From Alphaproteobacteria bacterium (GTDB lineage Bacteria; Pseudomonadota; Alphaproteobacteria; MPNO01), in contig OZ220750.1 in the NCBI GenBank assembly GCA_965117055.1, forward strand, positions 4,358,011 through 4,422,010: a stretch of DNA of 64,000 nt, written 5' to 3'. Made by a program: the position numbers and the translations under genes. The notes under the pieces were generated by a model. It saw only the letters and a program-made list of their open reading frames with translations, ran no database searches and was not told where the DNA came from. Shown one piece after another: positions 5,493 to 64,000 of this stretch; the first letter of the stretch is position 1, and each line of letters begins with the position of its first letter.

Positions 5493-5606
5493 TCGTCATG
5501 CCCGGACTTGTTCCCGGCATCCACGTCCCTCCACCGCCTCGTCCGCCCCCCGCTCGCACCGCGATGCCGCAAGACGTGGATGCCCGGAACAAGTCCGGGC
5601 ATGACG
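5493..5606. repeat. REPIN-like inverted doublet, family 1 (GTCATGCCCGGACTTGTTCCCGGCATCCACGTC)
   Basis: Left arm 5493-5527 and right arm 5573-5606 are near reverse complements; second copy at 44459-44573. Confidence 0.85.
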
Positions 5607-13339: not shown

Positions 13340-13413
13340 TGGGGGATAGTTTAACGGTAGAACTCTCGGCTCTGACCCGAGCAGTCCTGGTTCGAATCCA
13401 GGTCCCCCAGCCA
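13340..13413 (+). tRNA. tRNA-Gln (anticodon CUG)
   Basis: Hand-folded cloverleaf: acceptor TGGGGGA/TCCCCCA, anticodon stem CTCGG/CCGAG, loop CTCTGAC, T-arm CCTGG-TTCGAAT-CCAGG, 3' GCCA. Confidence 0.9.
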
Positions 13414-13502: not shown

Positions 13503-13534
13503 CCGTCATGGTCGGCCTTCGCCGACCATGACGG
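13503..13534. repeat. Single REP hairpin, family 2 (CCGTCATGGTCGGC-cttc-GCCGACCATGACGG)
   Basis: Perfect 14-bp palindrome downstream of tRNA-Gln; same core as the doublets at 19.6 and 24.6 kb. Confidence 0.85.
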
Positions 13535-19600: not shown

Positions 19601-19695
19601 TCGTCATGGTCGGCGCAGGCCGACCATCCACGAGTTTTTAAGGCGCTGGAAACAAAAACAAAACGTGGATGGTCGGCCTGCGCCGACCATGACGG
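19601..19695. repeat. REPIN doublet, family 2
   Basis: CGTCATGGTCGGCGCAGGCCGACCATCCACG and its exact reverse complement, separated by an A/T-rich spacer of about 27 nt. Confidence 0.9.
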
Positions 19696-24584: not shown

Positions 24585-24683
24585 GTCGTCATGGTCGGCG
24601 CAGGCCGACCATCCACGAGTTTTTCTTTGTCGGCGGAACAAAAAAACAAAACGTGGATGGTCGGCCTGCGCCGACCATGACGG
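24585..24683. repeat. REPIN doublet, family 2
   Basis: Same inverted 31-mer arms as 19601-19695 with an A-rich spacer. Confidence 0.9.
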
Positions 24684-39253: not shown

Positions 39254-39640
39254 ATGAGCGACGAGATCCTCACCATGCTCGGAGTGGGCGCGACGCTGCT
39301 GGCGTCGGGCGCGTCGTTCGCCCTGTTCATGTTCCGCCAATTGGTTCGCCTCGAGGGCAGGATGGGCGGGCTCGAGGGCAGGATGGGCGGGCTCGAGGGC
39401 AGGATAGGTGTGCTGGAAGGCCGGTTCGACGGGCTTGAGAGCAGGATCGGTGTGCTCGAAGGTCGGTTCGACGCGCTCGAAATCAGATTCGACAGGCTCG
39501 AGGACAGGTTCGTTCGGCTGGAAGAAAAGGTCGACGACCTCGCGAAGGGCCATCAGGCGCTCGCCCGCGAGCTTTCCGAGTTCCGCGGCGAGACCCGCGG
39601 GCGGCTGGGCGAGCTTGCGGCCGGGAGCGTCGCGGGGTGA
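39254..39640 (+). CDS. Membrane-anchored heptad-repeat (coiled-coil) protein
   Basis: N-terminal TM helix LGVGATLLASGASFALFMF, then nine LEGRxGx-type heptads. Confidence 0.55.
   Translation: MSDEILTMLGVGATLLASGASFALFMFRQLVRLEGRMGGLEGRMGGLEGRIGVLEGRFDGLESRIGVLEGRFDALEIRFDRLEDRFVRLEEKVDDLAKGHQALARELSEFRGETRGRLGELAAGSVAG
39350..39538 (+). repeat. Nine in-frame 21-bp tandem repeats
   Basis: LEGRMGG LEGRMGG LEGRIGV LEGRFDG LESRIGV LEGRFDA LEIRFDR LEDRFVR LEEKVDD read directly. Confidence 0.85.
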
Positions 39641-41953: not shown

Positions 41954-42083
41954 CCCCCTCACCCCGACCCTCTCCCCCGCGGGGAGAGGGGGCGTCGCTG
42001 CATCGCCTCGGCCTTATCTTCTCCCCTCCCGCTTGCCCCGGATCGCAGTCCGGGGCTTGCGGGAGGGGCCGGGGGAGGGTGGG
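41954..42083. repeat. Composite REP, families 4 and 5
   Basis: CCCCTCACCCCGACCCTCTCCCCCGCGGGGAGAGGGGG plus CTTCTCCCCTCCCGCTTGC...GCGGGAGGGGCCGGGGGAGGGTG; same pair recurs 7 or more times in the window. Confidence 0.85.
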
Positions 42084-42188: not shown

Positions 42189-42812
42189 TCAGGCGGTCTC
42201 CTCGGGCACCGGCGGGCGGGCGTCGAGCACCGGGGCGGCCCAGGCGAGCGCGATGTCCTCCATCTCGCGGGCGTTGGTCGAGTAGAGGTTGAAGGTCCCC
42301 TTCTCGCGGCCCGGCTTGACCCGCTTGACGTAGCGCGGCCCGTCGTCGGCGAGCTGCACGATGCACAGCTTGCCGATGCACTCGGACGGCACGCCTTCGT
42401 AGTCGCGGGTGTAGAACAGCAGCCACCCCTCCTCGATGGGCAGCATCGAATCGCCCTCGACCTCGACCGCCACCGTCTGCTGCGCGTCGAGCCCGTTGGG
42501 GCAGCGAACCATGCGGAGTCCCTGGCCCATCGCGTGGTCGTCGATGGCGTTGACCTCGGCCCCGGCGCCGACCCTGCCGACGACGGCCACGTTGGCCAGC
42601 CCCTCGACCAGGTCGAGCACGTTGCAGTCGAGCGCGGTCGCCACGTCGGTCAGCCGGTCGAGCGTGATCGAGACCTTGCCGGTCTCCCATTTGTGAAGGT
42701 GCCCGGCCGAGGTGCCGAGCATCCCGGCGAGCACCTGGAGGGTCAGCCCGCGGCGCTTGCGCCACTGCCTGATCCGGTTGGAGATCGCGGTTCCGTCGGG
42801 TCGGAGCGCCAT
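42189..42812 (-). CDS. CI/LexA-like phage repressor (XRE HTH plus S24 peptidase)
   Basis: 207 aa; IRQWRKRRGLTLQVLAGMLGTSAGHLHKWETG HTH; VEGDSMLP serine motif and downstream KRV lysine region. Confidence 0.85.
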   Translation of the reverse strand: MALRPDGTAISNRIRQWRKRRGLTLQVLAGMLGTSAGHLHKWETGKVSITLDRLTDVATALDCNVLDLVEGLANVAVVGRVGAGAEVNAIDDHAMGQGLRMVRCPNGLDAQQTVAVEVEGDSMLPIEEGWLLFYTRDYEGVPSECIGKLCIVQLADDGPRYVKRVKPGREKGTFNLYSTNAREMEDIALAWAAPVLDARPPVPEETA

Positions 42813-44090: not shown

Positions 44091-44100
44091 CGTCCCAAGC

Positions 44101-44205
44101 CCTCCCCCGGCCCCTCCCGCAAGCGGGAGGGGAGAAGGTAGAGAAGAGCCGGCGCCGCGAGTCTCCCTCTCCCCCAGCGGGGGAGAGGGCCGGGGTGAGG
44201 GGCGG
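44101..44205. repeat. Composite REP, families 5 and 4 (inverted orientation)
   Basis: CCTCCCCCGGCCCCTCCCGCAAGCGGGAGGGGAGAAG ... CTCTCCCCCAGCGGGGGAGAGGGCCGGGGTGAGGGG. Confidence 0.85.
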
Positions 44206-44458: not shown

Positions 44459-44573
44459 GTCGTCATGGCCGGACTTGTTCCGGCCATCCACGTCTTGCAG
44501 CACCTCGGTGCGGGCCGGGAGCGGGCGAGGCGGCGGAGGGACGTGGATGCCCGGAACAAGTCCGGGCATGACG
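44459..44573. repeat. REPIN doublet, family 1
   Basis: GTCGTCATGGCCGGACTTGTTCCGGCCATCCACGTC ... GACGTGGATGCCCGGAACAAGTCCGGGCATGACGG; homologous to 5493-5606. Confidence 0.85.
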
Positions 44574-44630
44574 GGGAGGGGATTCGGGCCGGAACGATTC
44601 CGGCCTGCTCGGTTCACGACGACCCGATCC

Positions 44631-44733
44631 ACCCTCCCCCGGCCCCTCCCGCGAGCGGGAGGGGAGGAGTGGAGAGGAGTCGGCGCCACAACTCTCCCTC
44701 TCCCCGGCGGGGAGAGGGCCGGGGTGAGGGGCG
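44631..44733. repeat. Composite REP, families 5 and 4
   Basis: Same architecture as 44101-44205. Confidence 0.85.
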
Positions 44734-44994: not shown

Positions 44995-45405
44995 GTGCCA
45001 GGCCCATCGAAGGCCGAGGCGGCCATGCGCGCGGTCGCACGGAGAGACATCGCGCGGCGCATCGGACCGCCGCCCGGGCGCCCGCCGCCGATCGACGAGC
45101 AGAATGTCGCCGGGATCGCCGCGTTCGGCTGCACCCGCAAGGAGGCGGCGGCGTGGTTCGGGGTGCCGGCGGCCGAGTTCAGGGAGCGGCTCAAGGAACC
45201 CGCGCTCAAGGACGCCTGGGCGCAAGGCAGGGCGCGCGGGCGGGTGCTGATCCGCCAGACCCAGTTCCGGCTGGCCGAGAACAGCCCGCCGATGGCGCAG
45301 CATCTCGGCCGCACGATGCTGGGCCAGGACACGCCCGCCAGGGCGCCCGCGCGGAAGAAACCCGCGCGGATCGTCATCGACACGGGGATCGACCGTGGCG
45401 AGTAG
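44995..45405 (+). CDS. Terminase small subunit (HTH-type)
   Basis: 136 aa, GTG start; IAAFGCTRKEAAAWFGVPAAEF HTH; overlaps the terL start; position. Confidence 0.6.
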   Translation: MPGPSKAEAAMRAVARRDIARRIGPPPGRPPPIDEQNVAGIAAFGCTRKEAAAWFGVPAAEFRERLKEPALKDAWAQGRARGRVLIRQTQFRLAENSPPMAQHLGRTMLGQDTPARAPARKKPARIVIDTGIDRGE

Positions 45406-46714
45406 GGTCAGCACCGGCTACCGGCCGCGCCCGCTCCAGGCCGGCATCCACCGCCGCCTCAAGCGCTTCAGCGTGCTGGTCTGCCACCGCCGCTTCGGCA
45501 AGACGGTGCTCTGCGTCAACGAGCTCGTCGACCACGCGGTGCGCGCGACCCGCGGGAGCCCGCGCTACGCCTATATCGCGCCGCTCTACCGCCAGGCCAA
45601 GCAGGTCGCGTGGGACTACCTCAAGCACTACACGAAGGCGATCCCGGACCGGCGGGTGCACGAGACCGAGCTCCGCGTCGACCTCCCCAACGGGGCGCGC
45701 ATCCAGCTCTACGGCGCCGACAACCCGGATTCGCTGCGCGGCATCTATCTCGACGGGGTGGTGCTCGACGAGTACGCGCAGATGAGCCCGCATCTCTGGG
45801 GCGAGGTGATCCGCCCGGCGCTCGCCGACCGCGAGGGCTGGGCGGTCTTCATCGGCACGCCCAAGGGGCACAACGAATTCTGGCGCAAATACCGCGCGGC
45901 GTGCGCCGACCCCGACTGGTACGCGGCGCTGTTCCCGGCCTCCGAGACCCGCATCCTGCCGGAGCCTGAGCTCGAGGCCGCGCGCCGCGACATGACGCCG
46001 GAGCAGTACGCGCAGGAGTTCGAGTGCTCCTTCGAGGCGGCGATCCGGGGCGCCTATTACGGCAAGGCGATGGCGGAAGCCCAGCGTACCGGGCGCATCC
46101 GCGCGGTGCCGCACGACCCGGCGCTGCCGGTCGACACCGCCTGGGACCTCGGGGTGGGCGATCCGACGGCGATCTGGTTCGTCCAGCTCGCCGGGCCCGA
46201 GATCCACCTGCTCGACTACTACGAGGCGGCGGGCGAGGGGCTCGACCACTATGCGCGGATACTCCAGGCCAAGGCGGCCGAGCGCGGCTGGGTCTATGGC
46301 AGCCACTACGCGCCGCACGACGCGCTGGCGCGCGAGCTCGGCACCGGGCGGACGCGCGAGGAGCAGGCGCGCCGCCTCGGGGTCGCGCTCACCGTGGTGC
46401 CGCGCCACGGGATCGAGGACGGCATCAACGCGGCGCGCGCGATCCTGCCGCGCTGCTGGTTCGACGCGGCGCGCACCGAGCCCGGCATCGAATGCCTGCG
46501 CCAGTACCGCGCCAAGGTCGACGGCGCGACGGGCACGATCGGCGATGCGCCGGTGCACGACCAGTTCAGCCACGGGGCGGACGCCTTCCGCTACCTCGCG
46601 ATGGGCGTGCGCGACCGCTTCGCCCCGCCCCCGCCGCGCGGCGGGGACACGATCGACGACCATCTGCGCCGCCATTTCGCGGCCAGGCGCAGCGCCCGCG
46701 ACGGGCTGATCTGA
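45395..46714 (+). CDS. Terminase large subunit
   Basis: 439 aa; Walker A-like CHRRFGKTV, Walker B VVLDEY, nuclease half with DLGVGDPTAIW and HGADAFRY. Confidence 0.9.
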   Translation: MASRVSTGYRPRPLQAGIHRRLKRFSVLVCHRRFGKTVLCVNELVDHAVRATRGSPRYAYIAPLYRQAKQVAWDYLKHYTKAIPDRRVHETELRVDLPNGARIQLYGADNPDSLRGIYLDGVVLDEYAQMSPHLWGEVIRPALADREGWAVFIGTPKGHNEFWRKYRAACADPDWYAALFPASETRILPEPELEAARRDMTPEQYAQEFECSFEAAIRGAYYGKAMAEAQRTGRIRAVPHDPALPVDTAWDLGVGDPTAIWFVQLAGPEIHLLDYYEAAGEGLDHYARILQAKAAERGWVYGSHYAPHDALARELGTGRTREEQARRLGVALTVVPRHGIEDGINAARAILPRCWFDAARTEPGIECLRQYRAKVDGATGTIGDAPVHDQFSHGADAFRYLAMGVRDRFAPPPPRGGDTIDDHLRRHFAARRSARDGLI

Positions 46715-46726
46715 GGGCGGCGAGCG

Positions 46727-46828
46727 GCCCCCTCACCCCGGCCCTCTCCCCGCCGGGGAGAGGGAGAGTTGCGGGGCCGACTTCCCCTCTCTTCTCCCCT
46801 CCCTCTGGGAGGGGTCGGGGGAGGGTGC
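46727..46828. repeat. Composite REP, families 4 and 5
   Basis: CCCCCTCACCCCGGCCCTCTCCCCGCCGGGGAGAGGGAGAG ... CTTCTCCCCTCCCTCTGGGAGGGGTCGGGGGAGGGTG. Confidence 0.85.
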
Positions 46829-46860
46829 CGGCCACGACGACGAACGAACAGGAGAACCGG

Positions 46861-48591
46861 ATGAAAACCGACACCGACAGCGCCGGACCCGACGAAACCG
46901 TCCGCTACTGGCGCGGCGAGCTGGAGCGGGCGGAGCGCGCCGAGCGCGACTGGATGCGGCGCGCGGAGAAGACCGTCGAGCGCTACCGCGCCGAGAAGCG
47001 CGTCGACGGCCAGCGCCGCTTCAACATCCTCTGGGCCAATACCGAGCTCCTCAAGCCCGCGGTCTATTCGCGGACGCCCGCGCCCGACGTGCGGCGGCGC
47101 TGGCTCGACGACGACCCGGCGGGGCGCGAGGCGGCCTCGGCGCTCGAACGCGCGCTCTCCTATCTCATCGACGACGGCGGGTTCGACGCGGCGATGGAGG
47201 CGGTGCGCGACGACATGCTGCTGCCCGGCCGCGGCGTGGCCCGGATCGTCTACGAGCCGGTCATCGCGCGGCGGCCGCTCGCGCGGGCGGGCGAGGTCTT
47301 CCTGCTCGACGGGCGGCCGGCGGAGCCCGACGGGTTCGACGGCGAGACCCCGTATGTCGAGGAGATCGTCGACGAGCGCGTCTTCTGCCGGCACGTGTTC
47401 TGGAAGGACTACCGCGAGCAGCCGGCGCGGTGCTGGGACGAGGTCGGCTGGATCGCCTTCCGCCACTCGCTGACCCGGGCCGAGCTGGTCGAGCGGTTCG
47501 GCGCGGCGGGAAGGCGGATCCCGCTCGAAGGCACCGTGAGCGCCTACGATGGACGCGGCGGGGAAGGCGCCGCGCCCGAGGACGCGAGGCGCGCCGTGGT
47601 CTGGGAGATCTGGGACAAGGCGAAGCGCCGCCGCGTGGTGATCGCGGACGGCTTCGACCGCGCGGTGGAGGAGACCGGCGACCCGCTCGGCCTCGCCGGC
47701 TTCTTCCCCATCCCGGAGCCGCTCTACGCCGTGAAGACCTCGGATTCGCGCATTCCCATCCCCGAGTTCACCCTCTACCAGGACCAGGCGCTGGAGCTCG
47801 ACGAGCTCACCACCCGCAAGCGGCATTTGATCGCGGCGCTCAAGGCGCGCGGCGTCTATGCCGGGGTGCTGGGCGAGATCGAGCGGCTGCTGACCGAGGC
47901 CGGCGAGAACGAGATGATCCCGGTCAAGGACTGGGACCGGTTCCGCGACAAGGGCGGGCTCGCCGCCGCCATCGAGTGGCTGCCGATCGAGCGCATCGCC
48001 CAGGTGATCGTCTCGCTGAACGGCCACATCGCCCAGCTCAAGGGCGAGATCTTCGAGATCACCGGGCTGTCGGACATCCTGCGCGGCTCGACCCGGGCGA
48101 GCGAGACCGCCACCGCGCAGCGGCTCAAGGGCTCGTTCGGCGCGCTCCGGATGCAGCCCCGCCAGCGCCCGATGGAGCGCTTCGTGCGCGACGTGCTCCG
48201 CCTCAAGGCGGAGGTGATCGCCGAGCATTTCCGCCCCGAGACGCTGGCCCGGATGACCGGCAGGCCGGTGCCGCCGGCGGTTCTCGCGCTGCTCCGCGAC
48301 GAGCGGCTGCGCGGCTTCCGGATCGACGTCGAGACCGAATCGACGGTCCAGCCCGACGCCGAGGCCGAGCGCCGCAACGCGGTCGAGTTCCTCGCCGCCT
48401 CGACGCAGTTCTTCACCGGGATCGCGCCGCTGATCGCCGCCGCGCCGCAATCGGCGCCGATGTTCCTCGAGATGTTCCGCACCGCCGCGCGCAGCTTCAA
48501 GCCGGGACGGCGGCTGGAGGAGGTCATCGCCCGGACGAGCGAGGCGCTGATCCGCGAGGCCGAGGCGGAAAGCGGCGGGAGGACGCCATGA
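46861..48591 (+). CDS. Portal protein (podovirus head-to-tail connector type)
   Basis: 576 aa; FNILWANTELLKPAVYSRTPAPDVRRR N-terminal block; position after terL. Confidence 0.8.
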   Translation: MKTDTDSAGPDETVRYWRGELERAERAERDWMRRAEKTVERYRAEKRVDGQRRFNILWANTELLKPAVYSRTPAPDVRRRWLDDDPAGREAASALERALSYLIDDGGFDAAMEAVRDDMLLPGRGVARIVYEPVIARRPLARAGEVFLLDGRPAEPDGFDGETPYVEEIVDERVFCRHVFWKDYREQPARCWDEVGWIAFRHSLTRAELVERFGAAGRRIPLEGTVSAYDGRGGEGAAPEDARRAVVWEIWDKAKRRRVVIADGFDRAVEETGDPLGLAGFFPIPEPLYAVKTSDSRIPIPEFTLYQDQALELDELTTRKRHLIAALKARGVYAGVLGEIERLLTEAGENEMIPVKDWDRFRDKGGLAAAIEWLPIERIAQVIVSLNGHIAQLKGEIFEITGLSDILRGSTRASETATAQRLKGSFGALRMQPRQRPMERFVRDVLRLKAEVIAEHFRPETLARMTGRPVPPAVLALLRDERLRGFRIDVETESTVQPDAEAERRNAVEFLAASTQFFTGIAPLIAAAPQSAPMFLEMFRTAARSFKPGRRLEEVIARTSEALIREAEAESGGRTP

Positions 48592-48812
48592 CGCGCTACG
48601 TCTGGAGCCGGGAAGAGGGCCGCTGGGTGCCCGCGGGGACCGCGCCGCCACGCCTGCAGATCGTCAACCGCGACGCGCCGTTCGCCGAGGGCGTGAGGAG
48701 CATGGCCGACGGCAAACGCTACACCGCCCGCCGCGCCTGGGACGAGCACTTGCGCGCGCACGGCATGGTCGAGATCGGCAACGACGCGGTGGAGCGACCC
48801 CCCTCACCCTGA
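48588..48812 (+). CDS. Small hypothetical phage protein
   Basis: 74 aa; ATGA coupling to portal; last codons run into a REP element. Confidence 0.4.
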   Translation: MTRYVWSREEGRWVPAGTAPPRLQIVNRDAPFAEGVRSMADGKRYTARRAWDEHLRAHGMVEIGNDAVERPPSP

Positions 48813-48900
48813 CCCTCTCCCCCGCTGGGGGAGAGGGGATTCGCCTGCCCATCCCGCCTCTTCTTCTCCCCTCCCGCTTGCGGGAGGGGCCGGGGGAGGG
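48798..48900. repeat. Composite REP, families 4 and 5
   Basis: CCCCCCTCACCCTGACCCTCTCCCCCGCTGGGGGAGAGGGG ... CTTCTCCCCTCCCGCTTGCGGGAGGGGCCGGGGGAGGG. Confidence 0.85.
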
Positions 48901-50084: not shown

Positions 50085-50363
50085 ATGAAATACGTATTGC
50101 TCGGCAAGCAGAGCGGCGAGTGGCTCGGCAGGCACGACCGGCGCAACCGGCTCGCCCGCGCCAAGGCCAAGGAGCTCGGGATCAAGATCCAGTCGGTGCT
50201 CTACACCCAGGGCGAATACGACTTCGTCGACACGGTCGAGGCGCCCTCGCCCGAGGCGATGCTCAAGTTCTCGGTGTGGTACGCCAAGCAGGGCTTCGGC
50301 TCCTTCCAGAGCATGCCCGCCTTCGACGGCAAGACCATGGCCGAGGCGTCGAAGGAGGAGTAG
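50085..50363 (+). CDS. GYD-domain protein
   Basis: 92 aa; MKYVLLGK...YTQGEYDFVDTVEAPSPEAMLKFSVWYAKQG matches the GYD family. Confidence 0.7.
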   Translation: MKYVLLGKQSGEWLGRHDRRNRLARAKAKELGIKIQSVLYTQGEYDFVDTVEAPSPEAMLKFSVWYAKQGFGSFQSMPAFDGKTMAEASKEE

Positions 50364-50376
50364 CGGGGCGCCCCAA

Positions 50377-50512
50377 CTGTCACCCCGGACTTGATCCGGG
50401 GTCCAGGCCCCGGACTGGGATCCGGGGCAGGCCTGCCCCGGACCGCGATCCGGGGAAGCCCGGCGAGGCGGAGCGTGTGGCTCTGGACCCCGGCTCAAGG
50501 CCGGGGTGACAA
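50377..50512. repeat. REP cluster, family 3 (four CCCCGGA-N5-TCCGGGG hairpins)
   Basis: Outer arms TGTCACCCCGGACTTGATCCGGGGTCCAG (50378-50406) and CTGGACCCCGGCTCAAGGCCGGGGTGACA (50483-50511). Confidence 0.9.
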
Positions 50513-50532: not shown

Positions 50533-50823
50533 ATGCGGACCTACTGGGTCTACATCCTCGCGAGCGGGCGCAACGGCACGCTCTATGTGGGCGTGACCAA
50601 CGACATCGTCCGGCGGGTCGCGCAGCATCGGGACGGCACGGGTGCGTCCTTCACCCGCAAATACAAGGTGACACGGCTCGTGCACGTGCAGCCGTTCGAG
50701 GATATCGAGTACGCCATCGCGCAGGAGAAGCGGCTGAAGAATTGGCGGCGGGAATGGAAGCTCACGTTGATCGAACGGGAGAATCCGGAGTGGCGGGACT
50801 TGTACGAAGACATCACCGCCTGA
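50533..50823 (+). CDS. Small GIY-YIG nuclease-family protein (copy 1)
   Basis: YWVYILASGRNGTLYVGVTNDIVRRVAQHR ... EKRLKNWRREWK; the ORF can also start at GTG 50506, inside the REP arm. Confidence 0.8.
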   Translation: MRTYWVYILASGRNGTLYVGVTNDIVRRVAQHRDGTGASFTRKYKVTRLVHVQPFEDIEYAIAQEKRLKNWRREWKLTLIERENPEWRDLYEDITA

Positions 50824-50847: not shown

Positions 50848-50934
50848 TGTCACCCCGGACTTGATCCGGGGTCCAGGGAAACAGGCAAGAACGATGCCCG
50901 CCGCTCTGGACCCCGGATCAAGTCCGGGGTGACA
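50848..50934. repeat. REPIN doublet, family 3
   Basis: 29-mer 50848-50876 and its exact reverse complement 50906-50934. Confidence 0.9.
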
Positions 50935-51534: not shown

Positions 51535-52524
51535 ATGACGGACGACACCAACGGGGCGGCTTCGGCCGCCGCGCGGAACAGCCTGCGCGAAGACCTGGAA
51601 GAGGCGTGGGACCGGCTTTCCTCGGAAGCCGGAGAACCGGAACCGGAGGCGAAGGCCGCTTCCGTCGAGGACGAGGACGAAACGGCCGTCCCGGAGGACG
51701 ACGCCGCGCCGGAGGACGAGCCCGAAACCGCCGTCGTCCCCCTCGCCCACTGGCCGGCGGAGTGGCGCGAGCGGTTCCAGGCGCTGCCGGAAGACGCCAA
51801 GCCCTACGCGCTCGACCTCCACCGGCAATTCGAGAAGGCGCATTCCGACCGCAGCCAGGCGCTCGCCGAGCGCGAGAAGGAGCTCGACGGGCTCCGGGCG
51901 GTCGACGCGGCGCTCGCCCCGTGGCGCGAGACCATGCGGGCCGAGGGGCTGACCGACGGCGAGGCGGTGAAGCGGCTGATGGACGCGCGGGCGGCGCTCG
52001 AACGCGACCCCGGGGCCGCGCTGTCGGCGATCGCCGAGTCCTACGGCATCGCGCCGCCGGCCGGCGCCGCCGCCGCCCCGCCCGAGCGGCGGGACGCGCT
52101 GACGGAGACGCTCGAGCGCTACGCCGCCGAGCAGCACGAGCTCCGCCTGATCGCCGCGATGGAGGCCGAGCTCGATTCCCGCGCCCGCGCGGTCGACGCG
52201 GCGGGCGAGAAGCGATTTCCCCATTTCGAGGCGGTCCGGCCGAAGCTCGCCGCGCTGATGCGCGCCGGCGCGGCGGACGGCTTCGAAGACGCCTACGAAC
52301 AGGCCGTCTGGGCCGATCCCGCTCTCCGGCAGAAGGCGCTGGAAGCGCGCGATGCCGAGCTGGCGGCACGGCGCGAAAGCGCCCGCAAGGCCGAGGTGGA
52401 GAAGGCGAGGAACGCCGGACGGGCCGCGCTCAGCGGCTCCGAACCGGCGAAATCCGCGCTGCCGCCCGCCCGGTCGCATCGCGAGGAGCTTGAGCGCGTG
52501 TGGGACCGGATGGTCGGCGCGTAA
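51535..52524 (+). CDS. Scaffolding protein (by position and composition)
   Basis: 329 aa, acidic, Ala/Glu-rich, helical; immediately upstream of the capsid gene. Confidence 0.55.
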   Translation: MTDDTNGAASAAARNSLREDLEEAWDRLSSEAGEPEPEAKAASVEDEDETAVPEDDAAPEDEPETAVVPLAHWPAEWRERFQALPEDAKPYALDLHRQFEKAHSDRSQALAEREKELDGLRAVDAALAPWRETMRAEGLTDGEAVKRLMDARAALERDPGAALSAIAESYGIAPPAGAAAAPPERRDALTETLERYAAEQHELRLIAAMEAELDSRARAVDAAGEKRFPHFEAVRPKLAALMRAGAADGFEDAYEQAVWADPALRQKALEARDAELAARRESARKAEVEKARNAGRAALSGSEPAKSALPPARSHREELERVWDRMVGA

Positions 52525-52549
52525 CAACCCCAACGAAAGGAAACGACAC

Positions 52550-53515
52550 ATGGCGAACGCCAATCTGGGCGATCTGGTCACGACCACGCTGCGCAACCGG
52601 CGCGGCCAGCTCGCCGACAACATCCTCAACCACAACGCGGTGCTCCGCTTCCTCAACCGGACGGGCAACGTGGACCCGGCGGACGGCGGGCGGACCCTGG
52701 TGGAAGAGCTCGAATACGCCGAGAACCAGACCTTCAAGTACTATTCCGGCTACGAGGCGCTCGACGTCTCGCCGTCCGACGTCTTCGACTCCGCCGAGTT
52801 CGAGTGGAAGCAGGCCGCCGTGGTGGTCTCGGTCTCGGGCGCCGAGGAGCGCAAGAACGCCGGCAAGGAGCAGTCGCTCCGCCTCGTCGACCGGCGCATC
52901 AAGAACGCCGAGAAGACGATGATGAACAACCTGTCGGAGGGCGTCTATTCCGACGGCACCGGCTCGTCGGGCAAGCAGATCGGCGGGCTCAAGGCGCTGG
53001 TCGCGGACGACCCCACGACCGGAACCGTCGGCGGCATCGACCGCGCCTCGTTCGAGTTCTGGCGCAACCAGGTCTACGACTTCTCGGAAGCCTCCGTCGA
53101 GGCGGGTTCGGAGACGATCCAGAAGGCGATGAACGCGCTCTGGCTCAAATGCCTCAGGGGCGCCGACGCGCCGACCCTGATCGTCGCCGACACCGCGTAT
53201 TTCAACCACTACTGGCAGTCGCTGCAGGCGATCCAGCGGATCTCGTCGGAGGAGGACGCGGGCGCCGGCTTCCGCTCGATCCGGTTCTACGGGCCGGGCG
53301 GCTCGGCCCCGGTGATGTACGACGACAAGTGCCCGGAAGAGCACATGTACATGCTGAACACCGACTACCTGTTCTGGCGCCCGCACAAGGACGCCAACAT
53401 GGAGCCGCTGGAGAAGCGGCAATCGGTCAACCAGGACGCGACCGTGATCCCGGTCGTCTTCATGGGCAACCTCACCATGTCCAACGCCGCCCGCCAGGGC
53501 GTGATGCACGCGTAG
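52550..53515 (+). CDS. Major capsid protein
   Basis: 321 aa from MANANLGDLVTTTLRNRRGQLADNI; AAGGAAA SD; position after scaffold; podovirus coat-like blocks. Confidence 0.8.
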   Translation: MANANLGDLVTTTLRNRRGQLADNILNHNAVLRFLNRTGNVDPADGGRTLVEELEYAENQTFKYYSGYEALDVSPSDVFDSAEFEWKQAAVVVSVSGAEERKNAGKEQSLRLVDRRIKNAEKTMMNNLSEGVYSDGTGSSGKQIGGLKALVADDPTTGTVGGIDRASFEFWRNQVYDFSEASVEAGSETIQKAMNALWLKCLRGADAPTLIVADTAYFNHYWQSLQAIQRISSEEDAGAGFRSIRFYGPGGSAPVMYDDKCPEEHMYMLNTDYLFWRPHKDANMEPLEKRQSVNQDATVIPVVFMGNLTMSNAARQGVMHA

Positions 53516-53519
53516 CGGC

Positions 53520-54100
53520 ACGGGGCGGCGGTCCTCCGACCGCCGCCCGCCTCCCCCCGTCATGCTCGGCGAAGGCCGAGCATCCACGAGTTTTTTCCTT
53601 GGCGGAGGGAGAACAAAAAAACAAATCGTGGATGCTCGGCCTTCGCCGAGCATGACGGGGGGGGGGAGAGGGAGACCCACCTTTCCCCCCCCCCCTCCCG
53701 CTTGCGGGAGGGACCGGGGGAGGGCGGCGATCGTGTCGACAGGGCGGCGGTCGGAGAACCACCGCCCGCCCTCTCCTCCGTCATGCTCGGCGGAGGCCGA
53801 CCATCCACGAGTTTTTTCTTCGGCGGAGGGAGAACAAAAAAACAAATCGTGGATGCTCGGCCTTCGCCGAGCATGACGATAGGGGGGAGAGGGAGACCCA
53901 CCTTCCCCCCTCCCGCTTGCGGGAGGGGCCGGGGGAGGGCGGCGATCCTGTCGACAGGGCGGCGGTCGGAGAACCACCGCCCGCCCTCTCCTCCGTCATG
54001 CTCGGCGGAGGCCGACCATCCACGAGTTTTTTCTTCGGCTGCGGAACAACAAAAAAGCAAATCGTGGATGCTCGGCCTTCGCCGAGCATGACGATGGGGG
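53520..54100. repeat. Tandem array (about 2.5 units of 215-220 bp) of composite REPs (family 2 variant REPIN plus family 5 plus GC hairpin)
   Basis: Unit starts CCGTCATGCTCGG at 53558, 53778 and 53993; arms GTCATGCTCGGCGAAGGCCGAGCATCCACGAG / reverse complement. Confidence 0.9.
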
Positions 54101-54103
54101 TGA

Positions 54104-54394
54104 TCAGGGCAGGAAGGTCTCGACAAGGTCGTTCCAGTCCGGGTTGGACTCGTGGATCAACCGGACCTTCCAGGCCCGCCGCCACCGCTTGATCGCCTTC
54201 TCCCGCCGGATCGCTTCGCGGATGTCGTCGTGAGGTTCGGCGTAAACGAGGCGTGTCAGCCCGTAACGCTTGGTGAAGCCGTCGATCAGGCCTTCGCGGT
54301 GCTCGTGAACGCGGCGCGCGAGGTCGGCGGTCACGCCGACATAGAGGGTGCCGTCGGGCCGGTTCGTCACGATGTAGACCCAGCCGCCCGCCAT
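54104..54394 (-). CDS. Small GIY-YIG nuclease-family protein (copy 2)
   Basis: GGWVYIVTNRPDGTLYVGVTADLARRVHEHR ... EKAIKRWRRAWK; the ORF can extend to an ATG inside the upstream REP arm. Confidence 0.8.
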   Translation of the reverse strand: MAGGWVYIVTNRPDGTLYVGVTADLARRVHEHREGLIDGFTKRYGLTRLVYAEPHDDIREAIRREKAIKRWRRAWKVRLIHESNPDWNDLVETFLP

Positions 54395-54440
54395 CCGTCG
54401 ATGCTGGCGGCGAGAGCGACAGGACGCAACCTCCTCCCCC

Positions 54441-54478
54441 GTCATGCTCGGCGAAGGCCGAGCATCCACGAGTTTTTT
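54441..54478. repeat. REP half-unit, family 2 variant
   Basis: CGTCATGCTCGGCGAAGGCCGAGCATCCACGAG, 46 nt upstream of GIY-YIG copy 2. Confidence 0.85.
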
Positions 54479-54540
54479 TCTTTGGCGGGGGGCCGGATTG
54501 TCGGCCCCTCTTTCCACAACACCAACCGAAAGGACGATCC

Positions 54541-55104
54541 ATGGAACCGGTTCCGGACGATGTCGGCTACTGGGAGAATTTCGCGGCCGGGCAGCAGGGC
54601 GGCGGGCGGGACGACTGCATCCCGCATTTCTACATGCGCGCGGTGCGCAACGCGGCGCGGAGCGAGGCGGAAGGGCGGCCGGTGTTCGACGAGGCCCCCT
54701 ACGTCAAGGTGCTGGTGCCGGGCGACCGCAACAGCATCGTCGACCGCAGGGTGGGCGATTCCGACCGCGAGCGCTGGCCCGGGCAATGGGCCGCCTTCCT
54801 CGCCAGGCGCGAGCGCCCGGCCGGCACGCCGATCGGGCACTGGCCCTATCTCACCGTCGCCCGCGCCGCCGAGCTCAAGGCGCTGGAGCTGCTGACCGTC
54901 GAGCAGGTGGCCGGGGCCGACGACGCGCTGGTCGAACGCATCGGCGGGGACGCCGCCGCGCTGGTCGAGCGCGCCCGGCAGTTCCTCCAGCCGCAATCCG
55001 AGACCGAGACCGAGCTCAGGGAGCAGATCGCCGCGCTCAAGCGCGACGTCGACGTGTGGAGGGGGCTCGCCGAGTCGAACAACCCGCCGGAGGACGCGGA
55101 ATGA
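54541..55104 (+). CDS. Hypothetical phage structural-module protein
   Basis: 187-aa ORF; codon usage like neighbours; ATGA coupling to next gene. Confidence 0.5.
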   Translation: MEPVPDDVGYWENFAAGQQGGGRDDCIPHFYMRAVRNAARSEAEGRPVFDEAPYVKVLVPGDRNSIVDRRVGDSDRERWPGQWAAFLARRERPAGTPIGHWPYLTVARAAELKALELLTVEQVAGADDALVERIGGDAAALVERARQFLQPQSETETELREQIAALKRDVDVWRGLAESNNPPEDAE

Positions 55105-58395: not shown

Positions 58396-58504
58396 CCCCC
58401 CTCACCCCGGCCCTCTCCCCGCTGGGGAGAGGGAGAGTCGCGGCGGCGCCGACCCCTCCTAATCTTCTCCCCTCCCGCTTGCGGGAGGGGCCGGGGGAGG
58501 GTGG
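58396..58504. repeat. Composite REP, families 4 and 5
   Basis: CCCCCTCACCCCGGCCCTCTCCCCGCTGGGGAGAGGGAGAG ... CTTCTCCCCTCCCGCTTGCGGGAGGGGCCGGGGGAGGGTG. Confidence 0.85.
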
Positions 58505-60928: not shown

Positions 60929-61342
60929 ATGCCCGTGTTCCTGCTCGATACCTGCGCGGTGATCTGGATCGCGCGGGACGAACCGTTGCGCGAGCCCGCC
61001 GCGAGCGCGTTGGCGGAACTGTACGCCGAGGAGGGCCGGTTGGCGGTGTCCCCGATCACCGCGTGGGAGGTCGCGATGCTGGCGGCGAAGGGGCGCATGG
61101 CTCTGGCGCTCAGGCCCGAGATCTGGTTCGACAGGATTTGCGCGATACCCGGCGTCGCTCTCGCCGAGATGCCGCCGTCGGTGCTGATCGCGTCCTGCTC
61201 CCTGCCGGGCTCCCTGCACGCCGATCCCGCGGACCGCATCCTCGCGGCGACCGCGCGGGCGTTCGGATACACGCTGGTGACCCGCGACCGCCGCCTGCTC
61301 GACTACGGCGGCGAGGGGCATGTGCAGGTCATGGCGTGCTGA
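60929..61342 (+). CDS. vapC: PIN-domain toxin VapC
   Basis: 137 aa; MPVFLLDTCAVIW..., SPITAWEV, DPADRILAATA, LVTRD acidic quartet. Confidence 0.85.
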   Translation: MPVFLLDTCAVIWIARDEPLREPAASALAELYAEEGRLAVSPITAWEVAMLAAKGRMALALRPEIWFDRICAIPGVALAEMPPSVLIASCSLPGSLHADPADRILAATARAFGYTLVTRDRRLLDYGGEGHVQVMAC

Positions 61343-62036
61343 GGCCCGCCTCCCCGACCGGCTCGACGCAGGCAGGTTCGTCGTTGGCGGGCTTGTTGAC
61401 CAGGGTGCTCACCGGGTGGGCTGTCATCGCGTCTGCCGGGTAGGAGCCGAGCTCCACAGCCTCGCCGGCGAGCCACGGGTCGCGGGCGTCGGGCGGGAGG
61501 ATGACCGGCATCCGGTGGTGGACCCGGGCGACCAGCGCGTTGGCGGAGGTCGTCAGGATCGTGCAGGTCTCGATCCCGTCGCCGGGCGCGAGCTCCGCCA
61601 TCGATCCGGGCAGCGGGACGCCGGCGCGCACCGTCCAGCGCTCCCACAGCCCGGCGAAGGCGAACGCCCCGCCCCCGGCCGGCTCGAACAGCCAGGGCTG
61701 CCTGCCCTTCTCGCGGCGCGCCCACTCGTAGAACCCGTCGGCCGGGATCAGGCAGCGCCTTGCCCGCCAGGCGGCGCGGAAGGAGGGCTTCTCGCTCGCC
61801 GTCTCGGCGCGGGCGTTGATCGTCCGATAGCCGATTTTCGGGTCCTTCGCCCAGGCCGGGATCAGCCCCCAGCGCAGCATCGAGAGCCGGCGTTCCCCCT
61901 CTTCCGCGCGAACCGCCGCGACCTCCTGCCCCGGCGCCACGTTGTAGCGCGGCCGCAAATTCGCCGCCGGCCCGGCGAGGCCGAGGAGCTCCTGGATCTC
62001 CCGTAGGGAGAAGCGCTGGGTGAACCGCCCGCACAT
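61329..62036 (-). CDS. SOS-response-associated peptidase (SRAP/YedK)
   Basis: MCGRF N-terminal catalytic Cys2; NVAPGQ, RWGLIPAW, NARAET, PADGFYEW, HHRMPVIL. Confidence 0.9.
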   Translation of the reverse strand: MCGRFTQRFSLREIQELLGLAGPAANLRPRYNVAPGQEVAAVRAEEGERRLSMLRWGLIPAWAKDPKIGYRTINARAETASEKPSFRAAWRARRCLIPADGFYEWARREKGRQPWLFEPAGGGAFAFAGLWERWTVRAGVPLPGSMAELAPGDGIETCTILTTSANALVARVHHRMPVILPPDARDPWLAGEAVELGSYPADAMTAHPVSTLVNKPANDEPACVEPVGEAGLSTP

Positions 62037-63120: not shown

Positions 63121-64000
63121 TAGGCGTTAACCCAAGTTTAACAGCCTATTTTGAAGTTTGTTGTTTGTCAGTGTGTTACCGGGCCGGTTTTGGGCGTATG
63201 GCACTACATTCGGGTGATTTACGCCGGATTGTCGATCAGACGATCATCTTCTTGATGCCTCCTGGAGCGGGGTCGGCGCCGAGTGCCCGATAGATGGCCT
63301 GCTGGCGGTGTTCGGCGCGGGTGGGCTTTCGCACATGAAGGGTGCGGCCGTCCTTTCGCCGGAATGTGGCGGTGACGCGCTGCTGGCCGTGGAGGATGGC
63401 GCGCAGCGTGTCCCAGCTTGCGTGTTCGCCGTGGTCTCGCAAGCGCCGGCGGATGGTCTGCACCAGCTGGTAGGCGATCACGGTGATGAAGAGGTGGCCG
63501 TCGGAGCGCTTCTGGGTGCGGTGGAAGATGGGGCGCAGGCCGAGCTCGGACTTGAGCGAGCGGAAGACGGCCTCGACATCGGTGAGCGTGGTATAGCTGC
63601 GCCACAGCGTCTCCTCGTCCCAGTCGTCCAGGTTGGTGCGCAGACAGTAGACGCCGGGGTGGGAGATCATGGTTCCGGCGCGCGGGCGGCGCTGCCAGGT
63701 GACGGCGCGGGCCTTTTCTCCGCTGTCGTCGGCGCGGACGTCGACGACGTAGTGGGCGCCGGCGCCGCGGCTCTTCTCCCTGATGCGGCCGATGCGCTGC
63801 CAGACATGGTCGAGCCTCTTGCGGGTGCGCGGCCGCTTGAGCCCGTCATCGAGCTTGCGGAGCTCGTCCTCGAAGCGCGCGGCGAAGCGTTCGGCGATGC
63901 CGCGCTCCTTCTTCGCCCGCGCCTCGGAGTAGCAGTAGAGCCGCGCTTCCCCGCTCCGGGCGTCGACCTCCTTGTGGACATGAACCGTCTGCCGCGAGCG
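63121..64000 (-). mobile_element. Insertion sequence (partial; end of element somewhere in 63121-63235)
   Basis: Transposase ORF plus AT-rich terminal region; inverted repeats cannot be defined without the other end. Confidence 0.5.
63236..64000 (-). CDS. DDE transposase (IS4/IS1634-like), C-terminal part; ORF open to window end
   Basis: In-frame translation from 64000: ...LYCYSEARAKKERGIAERF...YVVDV...MISHPGVYCLRTN...LWRSYTTLTDVEAVFRSLKSELGLRPIFH...HLFITVIAYQL. Confidence 0.75.
   Translation of the reverse strand, partial: RSRQTVHVHKEVDARSGEARLYCYSEARAKKERGIAERFAARFEDELRKLDDGLKRPRTRKRLDHVWQRIGRIREKSRGAGAHYVVDVRADDSGEKARAVTWQRRPRAGTMISHPGVYCLRTNLDDWDEETLWRSYTTLTDVEAVFRSLKSELGLRPIFHRTQKRSDGHLFITVIAYQLVQTIRRRLRDHGEHASWDTLRAILHGQQRVTATFRRKDGRTLHVRKPTRAEHRQQAIYRALGADPAPGGIKKMIV

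Follow-up and report, generated by a model that had tools for sequence, protein, structure and literature searches.

A 64,000-nucleotide stretch of the Alphaproteobacteria bacterium contig OZ220750.1 (GenBank assembly GCA_965117055.1, positions 4,358,011 to 4,422,010 of the forward strand; hereafter the window) contains at 53.5–54.5 kb a small GIY-YIG endonuclease gene, named GIY#2, among CGTC-tagged hairpins in a prophage junction, and its sequence and its likeness to characterized relatives indicate that this region is very probably an Ssn/SRM module. SRM-type motifs, such as NTS/dRS3 in Neisseria, flank the genes of Ssn, single-domain GIY-YIG proteins (cd10448) of about 94 amino acids, and 71% of the Ssn homologs have at least one SRM nearby while 42% have an SRM on both sides (Chenal et al. 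2025 Nat Commun, PMC11893778). The gene-plus-repeat pairing in the window is a new example of this system, published in 2025, and not a new system. The clade of GIY#2 goes with an arm family of the form ATG(G/C)TCGGC-GNAG, and its co-resident paralog, GIY#1, goes with a ACCCCGGAC family. A first-pass annotation of the window had proposed a cognate relationship between each enzyme and the repeats around it; this central idea is correct but is a rediscovery, since the Ssn/SRM pairing was already reported by Chenal et al. 2025 (PMC11893778). What is new here is the prophage location, the variable number of repeat doublets, a 445-bp indel made up of the gene plus one doublet, and an arm family missed by the published SRM search string.

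The GIY#2 nuclease and the repeat arms around it

GIY#2 (54104..54394, minus strand) encodes an Ssn-type single-domain GIY-YIG nuclease of 96 amino acids with the N-terminus MAGGWVYIVTNRPDGTLYVGVT. Residues 4–76 match Pfam PF01541 GIY-YIG (E 1.1e-14), and the AlphaFold2 model (pLDDT 92.3) displays one GIY-YIG domain with the GIY-YIG fold. An alignment of 15 homologs, both window paralogs included, showed that Y7, Y18, G20, R28, H32, E65 and N84 were invariant, and GIY#2 keeps the tyrosines of the GIY and YIG motifs together with the metal-binding Glu (Y7, Y18, R28, H32, E65). The dN/dS ratio is 0.10–0.25. Judged by sequence and model, GIY#2 is intact and under purifying selection, with its catalytic residues and the GIY-YIG fold.

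Seven arms of the form CGTC-ATGCTCGGC-GNAG-GCCGA(G/C)CAT-CCAC surround the gene, arranged as three inverted doublets in an array and one solo arm upstream, so that the first-pass claim of variant arms on both sides of this reading frame holds. When the 32-nt arm GTCATGCTCGGCGAAGGCCGAGCATCCACGAG was searched with up to 3 mismatches, the window yielded nine matches vs none in 100 shuffles (0.00 expected). Seven of them lie near GIY#2 (53559+, 53625-, 53780+, 53846-, 53995+, 54061- and 54441+), and the other two, at 19603 and 24588, read GTCGGC. A structural scan for tagged hairpins (GTC, a stem of at least 7 bp, a loop of 3–7 nt, then the tail) resolved the arm with CTCGGC, hereafter B', as CGTC-ATGCTCGGC-GAAG-GCCGAGCAT-CCAC. 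Within the window this B' family (ATGCTCGGC-GAAG) is found only at 53.5–54.5 kb, around GIY#2, and arms with GTCGGC (ATGGTCGGC-GCAG) are called B.

Doublet 1 (53558..53657) consists of a plus arm (53558-53587) and a minus arm (53628-53657), both of B' type, with the CGTC tags outward and a T-run/A-run spacer. The whole doublet folds as one long hairpin in single-stranded DNA (ssDNA) at -60.5 kcal/mol (z -17), compared with -12.7 kcal/mol (z -5) for one arm by itself. Doublet 2 (53779..53878) and doublet 3 (53994..54093) each join a hybrid plus arm (53779-53808 and 53994-54023) to a B' minus arm (53849-53878 and 54064-54093). The hybrid arms, which the first-pass annotation had noticed near 53778 and 53993, are real and read ATGCTCGGC-GGAG-GCCGACCAT, with CTCGGC in the 5' half, GACCAT in the 3' half and one stem mismatch each. 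The minus-arm tag of doublet 3 stands on the sense strand of GIY#2, about 10 nt from the stop codon (tag 54093, stop 54104). On the other side, the solo B' plus arm (54440..54486, plus strand) comprises the arm itself (54440-54469) and the T-run half of the spacer, and is a truncated doublet without the minus arm and about 57 bp that are present in the related locus L147; the distance from the GIY#2 start (54394) to its tag (54440) is about 45 nt. These distances are close to the 12 and 46 nt given earlier. The spacer of B and B' doublets is conserved and consists of CCACGAGTTTTT, a variable core and then AAAAACAAAACGTGG.

The doublets upstream of the gene in the direction of the window's forward strand are part of a tandem array of composite units (spacer plus doublet) at 53539..54100, for which Tandem Repeats Finder gave a period of 215, 2.6 copies and 92% matches. 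A repeat search gave spacings of 221 and 215, each unit being a doublet with a spacer of 115–121 nt, in agreement with the initial estimate of about 2.5 copies at 215–220 bp. Array spacer 1 (53658..53778) contains a remnant of a separate, G/C-rich repeat, the D element (hairpin CCCTCCCGCTTGCGGGAGGG), and a copy of the G/C hairpin GGGCGGCGGTCCTCCGACCGCCGCCC, which lies at 53523..53548 (plus strand) immediately 3' of the stop codon of the capsid gene; array spacer 2 (53879..53993) is 93% identical to it, and both hold loop-flipped copies of the post-capsid hairpin. The complete D element is about 105 bp long and has two G/C hairpins, CCCTCTCCCC-GCNG-GGGGAGAGGG and CCCCTCCCGCTTGCGGGAGGGG. Six copies are intergenic in the prophage (41954-42036, 44100-44202 on the minus strand, 44630-44731 on the minus strand, 46722-46835, 48799-48900 and 58397-58503), and D-element remnants make up the array spacers. 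The array would have arisen by tandem duplication or unequal recombination of the unit of D-element remnant, hairpin and doublet, and appears to be a mosaic of the BIME/NIME kind.

Pairing of genes and repeat families

The paralog GIY#1 (50533..50823, plus strand) is of Ssn type, 52% identical to GIY#2 and 3.3 kb away from it. It sits between two doublets of family C (ACCCCGGAC-TTG in the structural scan) at 50378-50511 and 50848-50934, whose arms read TGTC-ACCCCGGAC-TTG-ATCCGGGGT-CCAG. Two paralogs with two different palindromes, as first proposed, are thus present in the window, B/B' arms at GIY#2 and ACCCCGGAC arms at GIY#1; both genes are placed between doublets and the tags of the nearest arms point toward the gene.

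To place this pairing in a wider frame, two sets of homologs were compiled. The GIY#2 set came from a one-genome-per-species scan (80 alphaproteobacterial loci, 63–86% identity) and the GIY#1 set from a metagenome scan (80 loci, 53–70% identity). In the GIY#2 set tagged hairpins occurred at 9.4 per kb within 100 nt of the gene vs 0.12–0.3 per kb beyond 300 nt, and in the GIY#1 set at 6.4 vs 0.1 per kb, so that across the 160 homologous loci the density of tagged hairpins was 40–80 times higher within 100 nt of the gene than farther off. The GIY#2 set carried 144 CGTC tags vs 5 TGTC tags, with mostly CCAC tails, and the GIY#1 set carried 72 TGTC vs 30 CGTC, with mostly CCAG tails. This split between the sets is the same pairing as in the window. 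In addition, six GIY#1 relatives (56–62% identical) carry the exact NTS string of N. meningitidis, which speaks indirectly for kinship with SsnA.

The identity of the proteins was correlated with the best identity of their arms (Mantel r 0.44, 0/999 permutations), and the mean arm identity was 0.70 for proteins less than 50% identical and rose to 0.97 for those more than 80% identical. Paralogs on single contigs keep their own arm families, as seen in the window, L146 and L147, and the paralogs of Ferrovibrio terrae (L007 vs L050) also keep different arms. In three related prophages the GIY#1-type genes have ACCCCGGAC arms and the genes of the GIY#2 clade have ATGGTCGGC-type arms. B-type arms are confined to loci with a gene at least 76% identical to GIY#2, save two contigs without a GIY gene, L081, which was fetched through its capsid protein, and L253, which was chosen by the arm pattern itself.

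The reported properties of Ssn enzymes give a working picture of what GIY#2 might do. Ssn enzymes bind the motif solely as ssDNA and in one orientation, cut a few nt upstream of it, and the homologs each favour a motif of their own (PMC11893778). By extension from Chenal et al. 2025, GIY#2 would bind the folded arm on the strand reading CGTC-stem-loop-stem-CCA, and would cut the CGTC-first strand a few nt 5' of the tag. The likeness to SsnA/NTS of N. meningitidis (PMC11893778) extends to the single-domain GIY-YIG protein of about 95 amino acids, the oriented hairpins of about 30 nt on both sides of the gene, which are tagged with CGTC and have a C behind the stem, the dispersal of the repeats elsewhere in the genome, and homologs with motif variants of their own. 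Unlike that system, the window has two paralogs and two motif families 3.3 kb apart in a prophage structural module, and neither prophages nor paralogs are mentioned by Chenal et al. 2025 (PMC11893778).

The repeats also belong to a class described earlier. CGTC repetitive extragenic palindromes (REPs) were defined by a CGTC or TGTC tag, an 8-9-bp stem, a 4-5-nt loop, a CCA tail and head-to-head dimers, are mainly alphaproteobacterial and "apparently lack a dedicated transposase" (Di Nocera, De Gregorio & Rocco 2013, PMC3733652). The window arms have the tag, an 8-9-bp stem beginning from A, a 4-5-nt loop, the CCA tail and the head-to-head arrangement, in an alphaproteobacterial host. Two differences are that no associated enzyme gene is given in PMC3733652, whereas here a GIY-YIG gene stands among the repeats, as in Chenal 2025, and that tandem clustering is rare outside Neisseria and Wolbachia according to PMC3733652, whereas a tandem array is present here. 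The inverted doublets of about 100 bp and the single small enzyme gene flanked by its own REPs also recall REPIN/RAYT, and the tandem mosaic arrays of doublets and other motifs recall BIME/NIME. Unlike in REPIN/RAYT, the tag is CGTC/TGTC and not GTAG, and the enzyme is a hydrolytic GIY-YIG nuclease and not a HUH tyrosine (HUH-Y1, RAYT) transposase.

Several points weigh against reading the region as an Ssn/SRM module with cognate repeats. The correlation between protein and arm identity is confounded by shared host ancestry, and the pairing of gene and arms could come from linkage and shared host descent instead of recognition. Nearest-arm tags face the gene, as in the window, in 10 of the 160 loci vs 55 with the tags outward, so the layout with the gene between doublets is not the commonest one. 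Moreover, B and B' may be non-equivalent substrates, because changing the palindrome sequence abolished activity even when the hairpin was kept (Chenal et al., PMC11893778). Finally, the published SRM search string, HGTCWYN(0-2)YYVSBRHN(0-5)WNVSBRGN(0-2)RNCYNB (Chenal 2025), matches none of the seven B/B' arms, which places them outside the published degenerate motif. This last mismatch seems to come from the limits of the string and not from the arms being of another kind. The same string matches the C arms of GIY#1 (6 matches in the window vs 0.84 expected) and the A arms, a further family described below. In the GIY#2 set the string finds a motif within 500 nt at 34 of the 80 genes and the scan for tag plus hairpin finds tagged hairpins near most of them, and therefore the published census probably undercounts SRMs in Alphaproteobacteria.

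Altogether the structural scan found four tagged hairpin families with 20 tagged arms in the 64 kb, all of them forming plus/minus doublets of about 100 bp with CGTC tags at the outer ends. Two B doublets (19602-19694 and 24587-24682) have no adjoining GIY gene, and a double-tagged B element, CGTCATGGTCGGCCTTCGCCGACCATGACG, at 13504-13533 is a perfect palindrome of the GTCGGC type with CGTC tags on both strands; the GTCGGC reading of these three sites had been recognized from the start. The palindrome is found about 95 nt downstream of the only Rfam hit at the gathering threshold, a tRNA gene (13340-13410); the GIY#2 region had no such hit. Family A (ATGCCCGGAC-TTG) forms doublets at 5494-5606 and 44461-44573 with the full arm CGTC-ATGCCCGGAC-TTG-TTCCGGGCAT-CCAC. 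No GIY gene is near them, and an identical arm adjoins a 71%-identical GIY gene in L025, which suggests a third Ssn paralog, for family A, elsewhere in the source genome.

Variation at the prophage junctions and its possible causes

The module occupies the intergenic region that follows the major capsid gene in the integrated prophage. This junction is variable, and gene presence and doublet number vary between near-identical prophages. At this capsid junction, L147 (GIY gene 91% identical) has two doublets with plus arm B and minus arm B', the gene and one further doublet; L148 (86%) has one doublet on each side of the gene, each with plus arm B and minus arm B'; and L081 (capsid protein 94% identical) has no gene and a single doublet, again with plus arm B and minus arm B'. 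Upstream of the gene there are thus three doublets in the window, two in L147 and one in L148, which is the comparison of array copy number among relatives that had been recommended. At another junction, between terminase and portal, L146, the closest homolog (93%), has pure B (GTCGGC) doublets on both sides, and L250/L251 (88%) have B-type doublets on both sides, one arm reading ACGGTCGGC. In chromosomal contexts, L150, L248 and L249 (82–85%) have B arms, and L149 (83%) has decayed remnants only.

The CTCGGC sub-variant had been taken to occur only around GIY#2 and to mark its cognate repeat. Inside the window this distribution stands; among relatives it does not. In the 1.88 Mb of fetched loci, B' is found only at the capsid site and in one unrelated IMG/VR phage contig, where an exact B' arm has no GIY gene within 11 kb. 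CTCGGC as the own motif of GIY#2 was accordingly rejected, being present in the gene-less L081 and in the unrelated contig while the 93% homolog has only GTCGGC, and the split between CTCGGC and GTCGGC in related loci displayed no gene-specificity. The cognate relationship is consequently upheld at the level of repeat families (hairpin density, Mantel correlation and arm families) and not for the sub-variant. B' is a locus-specific variant with one compensated stem base pair (G:C to C:G) on minus arms. CTCGGC would have been inherited with the minus arms of the capsid-junction locus and, in the window, would have passed to plus arms through inter-arm conversion; the hybrid arms, found only in the window among the 1.88 Mb of related loci, may be half-converted intermediates.

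Between L081 and L148 the identity is 99.4–99.5% over 6.3 kb, save one 445-bp block consisting of the gene and one doublet. The breakpoint falls anywhere within a 37-bp identical direct repeat made of the minus arm and GTGGGGG, which on the GIY#2 sense strand includes the CGTC tag and 7 nt 5' of it. Ssn enzymes cut at a position just 5' of the CGTC tag (Chenal et al. 2025, PMC11893778), matching this breakpoint zone. L081 as an empty insertion target with its junction at the Ssn cut position was considered and rejected. The capsid-site copy is common to the window, L147 and L148, three diverged relatives, with a divergence like that of the phage backbone (87–92% DNA identity; gene dS 0.3–0.4), and the L081 state is therefore better read, from sequence comparison, as a probable recent deletion between directly repeated doublets.

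Other sites vary as well. The terminase-portal junction has a D element in the window (46722-46835) and a doublet-GIY-doublet cassette in L146 and L250/L251 (gene 88–93% identical); a clean empty state of this site was not definable among IMG/VR terminase relatives, which are at most 52% identical. In L082 (capsid protein 91% identical) the capsid junction (1598-2758) holds an open reading frame (ORF) of 187 amino acids and a different repeat family on CGTCATTTCGAC, with no B arms and no GIY gene. The capsid junction is, more broadly, an insertion hot spot. Variation extends to the GIY#1 site, where L148 (8011-8520) lacks a GIY gene and has a stretch of about 450 bp with lower GC and a single degenerate C arm. 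The GIY#2 clade (82–93% identity) occupies two junctions of phage genomes and four or more chromosomal settings, and this spread shows that the clade moves on evolutionary time scales. The alternative that these are conserved syntenic housekeeping genes does not fit this distribution.

How the clade moves bears on a further explanation, in which the gene and its doublets are a self-propagating mobile cassette and Ssn mobilises CGTC REPs by homing or by ssDNA transposition. In the homing form, Ssn would cut at a hairpin and repair would copy from a cassette-bearing locus with the arms as homology; in the cassette form, Ssn would nick the ssDNA hairpin by the CGTC tag, and the gene and doublets next to it would be copied or lost during repair. 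The recurrence of 82–93% identical genes in the two phage and four or more chromosomal settings, every time accompanied by B doublets, is consistent with it, as is the position of the 445-bp breakpoint in the minus arm plus 7 nt 5' of the CGTC tag, the cut zone of N. meningitidis SsnA. Chenal et al. remarked on an architecture like that of insertion sequences (PMC11893778), and the survey of Di Nocera et al. turned up no transposase for these REPs (PMC3733652). Nevertheless, the explanation is rather doubtful. The window, L147 and L148 have the capsid-site copy in common, and L081 is best read as a deletion between the 37-bp direct repeats; no clean pair of empty and filled sites with a target duplication was found; and the L148/L251 lineage has two copies that share only 81% DNA identity and are therefore old paralogs. 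Because GIY-YIG enzymes act by hydrolysis without a covalent intermediate, other factors would be required for strand transfer. If the explanation were true, Ssn would be the long-missing mobilising enzyme of the CGTC REP superfamily, and traces of Ssn activity in nature would be preserved at the prophage junctions, in their two sites, their 1–3 doublets and the 445-bp indel between 99.4%-identical phages.

A less probable explanation, and on the whole an unlikely one, is that the doublets are primarily RNA or transcription elements. Placed behind the highly expressed capsid gene, they would terminate transcription in both directions or stabilise mRNA, and the GIY-YIG gene would be a chance passenger between them. 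The doublet stands directly 3' of the capsid stop codon in L081 and L148, after a D element of about 140 nt in L147 and after a 42-nt hairpin region in the window, and each B arm, a stable hairpin, has a T-run (CCACGAGTTTTT) behind it on the same strand. The CGTC REP survey also places REPs mostly downstream of coding regions (PMC3733652). However, a scan of 53300-54700 gave neither promoters nor terminators, no terminator being called because the T-run begins 6–7 nt after the stem. The C-family doublets at GIY#1 have no T-run, and this explanation leaves the 40–80-fold enrichment of tagged hairpins at GIY genes in 160 unrelated loci unaccounted for.

As to the identity of the gene itself, the solved structures nearest to GIY#2 are UPF0213 BH0048 (E 4e-4), Slx1 and EF2693, and its best PDB sequence match is UPF0213 BH0048/EF2693 (E 9e-6, about 29% identity to BH0048); no Ssn structure was among the structural matches. 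The NCBIfam search returned no model above threshold, TIGR01453 (group I intron endonuclease) matching below it (E 2e-4, 21.4 bits vs a cut-off of 56) over the GIY-YIG motif only, and PADLOC matched neither GIY paralog to any defence-system model. UPF0213 has a separate CDD model, cd10456. In Chenal et al. 2025 (PMC11893778), Ssn (cd10448) ranks as a separate family of the GIY-YIG superfamily. That GIY#2 is a free-standing phage homing endonuclease (Seg/I-TevI) or a housekeeping UPF0213/YhbQ gene at which REPs arrived independently is highly improbable: the intergenic place in a phage structural module with presence/absence polymorphism, the weak TIGR01453 match and the nearest structures could be cited for it, but the 96-amino-acid protein has no DNA-binding domain, unlike Seg/I-TevI enzymes of about 200–250 amino acids, the two family matches are as low as given above, the genomic contexts are variable and multi-copy, and no homologs were found in 50,697 GenBank phages (E<=1e-8) or in 84 related viral contigs (E<=1e-5).

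Prophage setting and meaning of the locus

From about 42 kb to at least 60 kb the window, which has 68.5% G+C, is prophage. Its genes include a CI-like repressor (42189-42812), the large terminase (45395-46714), the portal protein within an ORF ending at 48591 (best-matched residues 274-749), a GYD protein (50085-50363), a helix-turn-helix protein that follows GIY#1 in gene order, and a probable scaffold gene (51535-52524) judged from its position only, with no family match. The left border of the GIY#2 junction is the major capsid protein gene (52547..53515, plus strand; phrog_9953 E 1.5e-99; Pfam SU10_MCP), and the right border is the next phage structural gene (54541..55104, plus strand; phrog_20268), collinear with L081, L147 and L148. 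Further structural genes lie beyond the array and GIY#2, which is antisense to the late operon. Both cassettes are in the prophage structural module, a detail that is new here. Given the absence of GIY#2 homologs from the GenBank phages and related viral contigs searched, Ssn genes and CGTC REPs are unusual in a phage genome, and their presence in this one would most simply be explained by the colonisation of a resident prophage by the repeat system of its host.

At the right end of the prophage region there are a PIN-domain gene, a gene for an SOS response associated peptidase (SRAP) and a DDE transposase fragment (60929-62036 and 63236-63670). The ORF 39254-39640 contains a tandem repeat (39350-39512) whose period is 21/42 bp, with 7.8 or 3.1 copies. 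A megablast comparison with plasmids matched only ABC-transporter genes, at 75% identity, and in the collections searched the best matches reached 93% for a protein and 86% for a genome locus.

Literature searches found no published follow-up on the mobility of Ssn. The locus is a compact natural experiment, with two Ssn paralogs and two distinct motif families in one prophage, near-identical relatives that differ in gene presence, gene position and doublet number, and one motif family that the published string misses. Such material could serve to test the specificity of the paralogs and the role of Ssn in the gain, loss and amplification of CGTC REPs.

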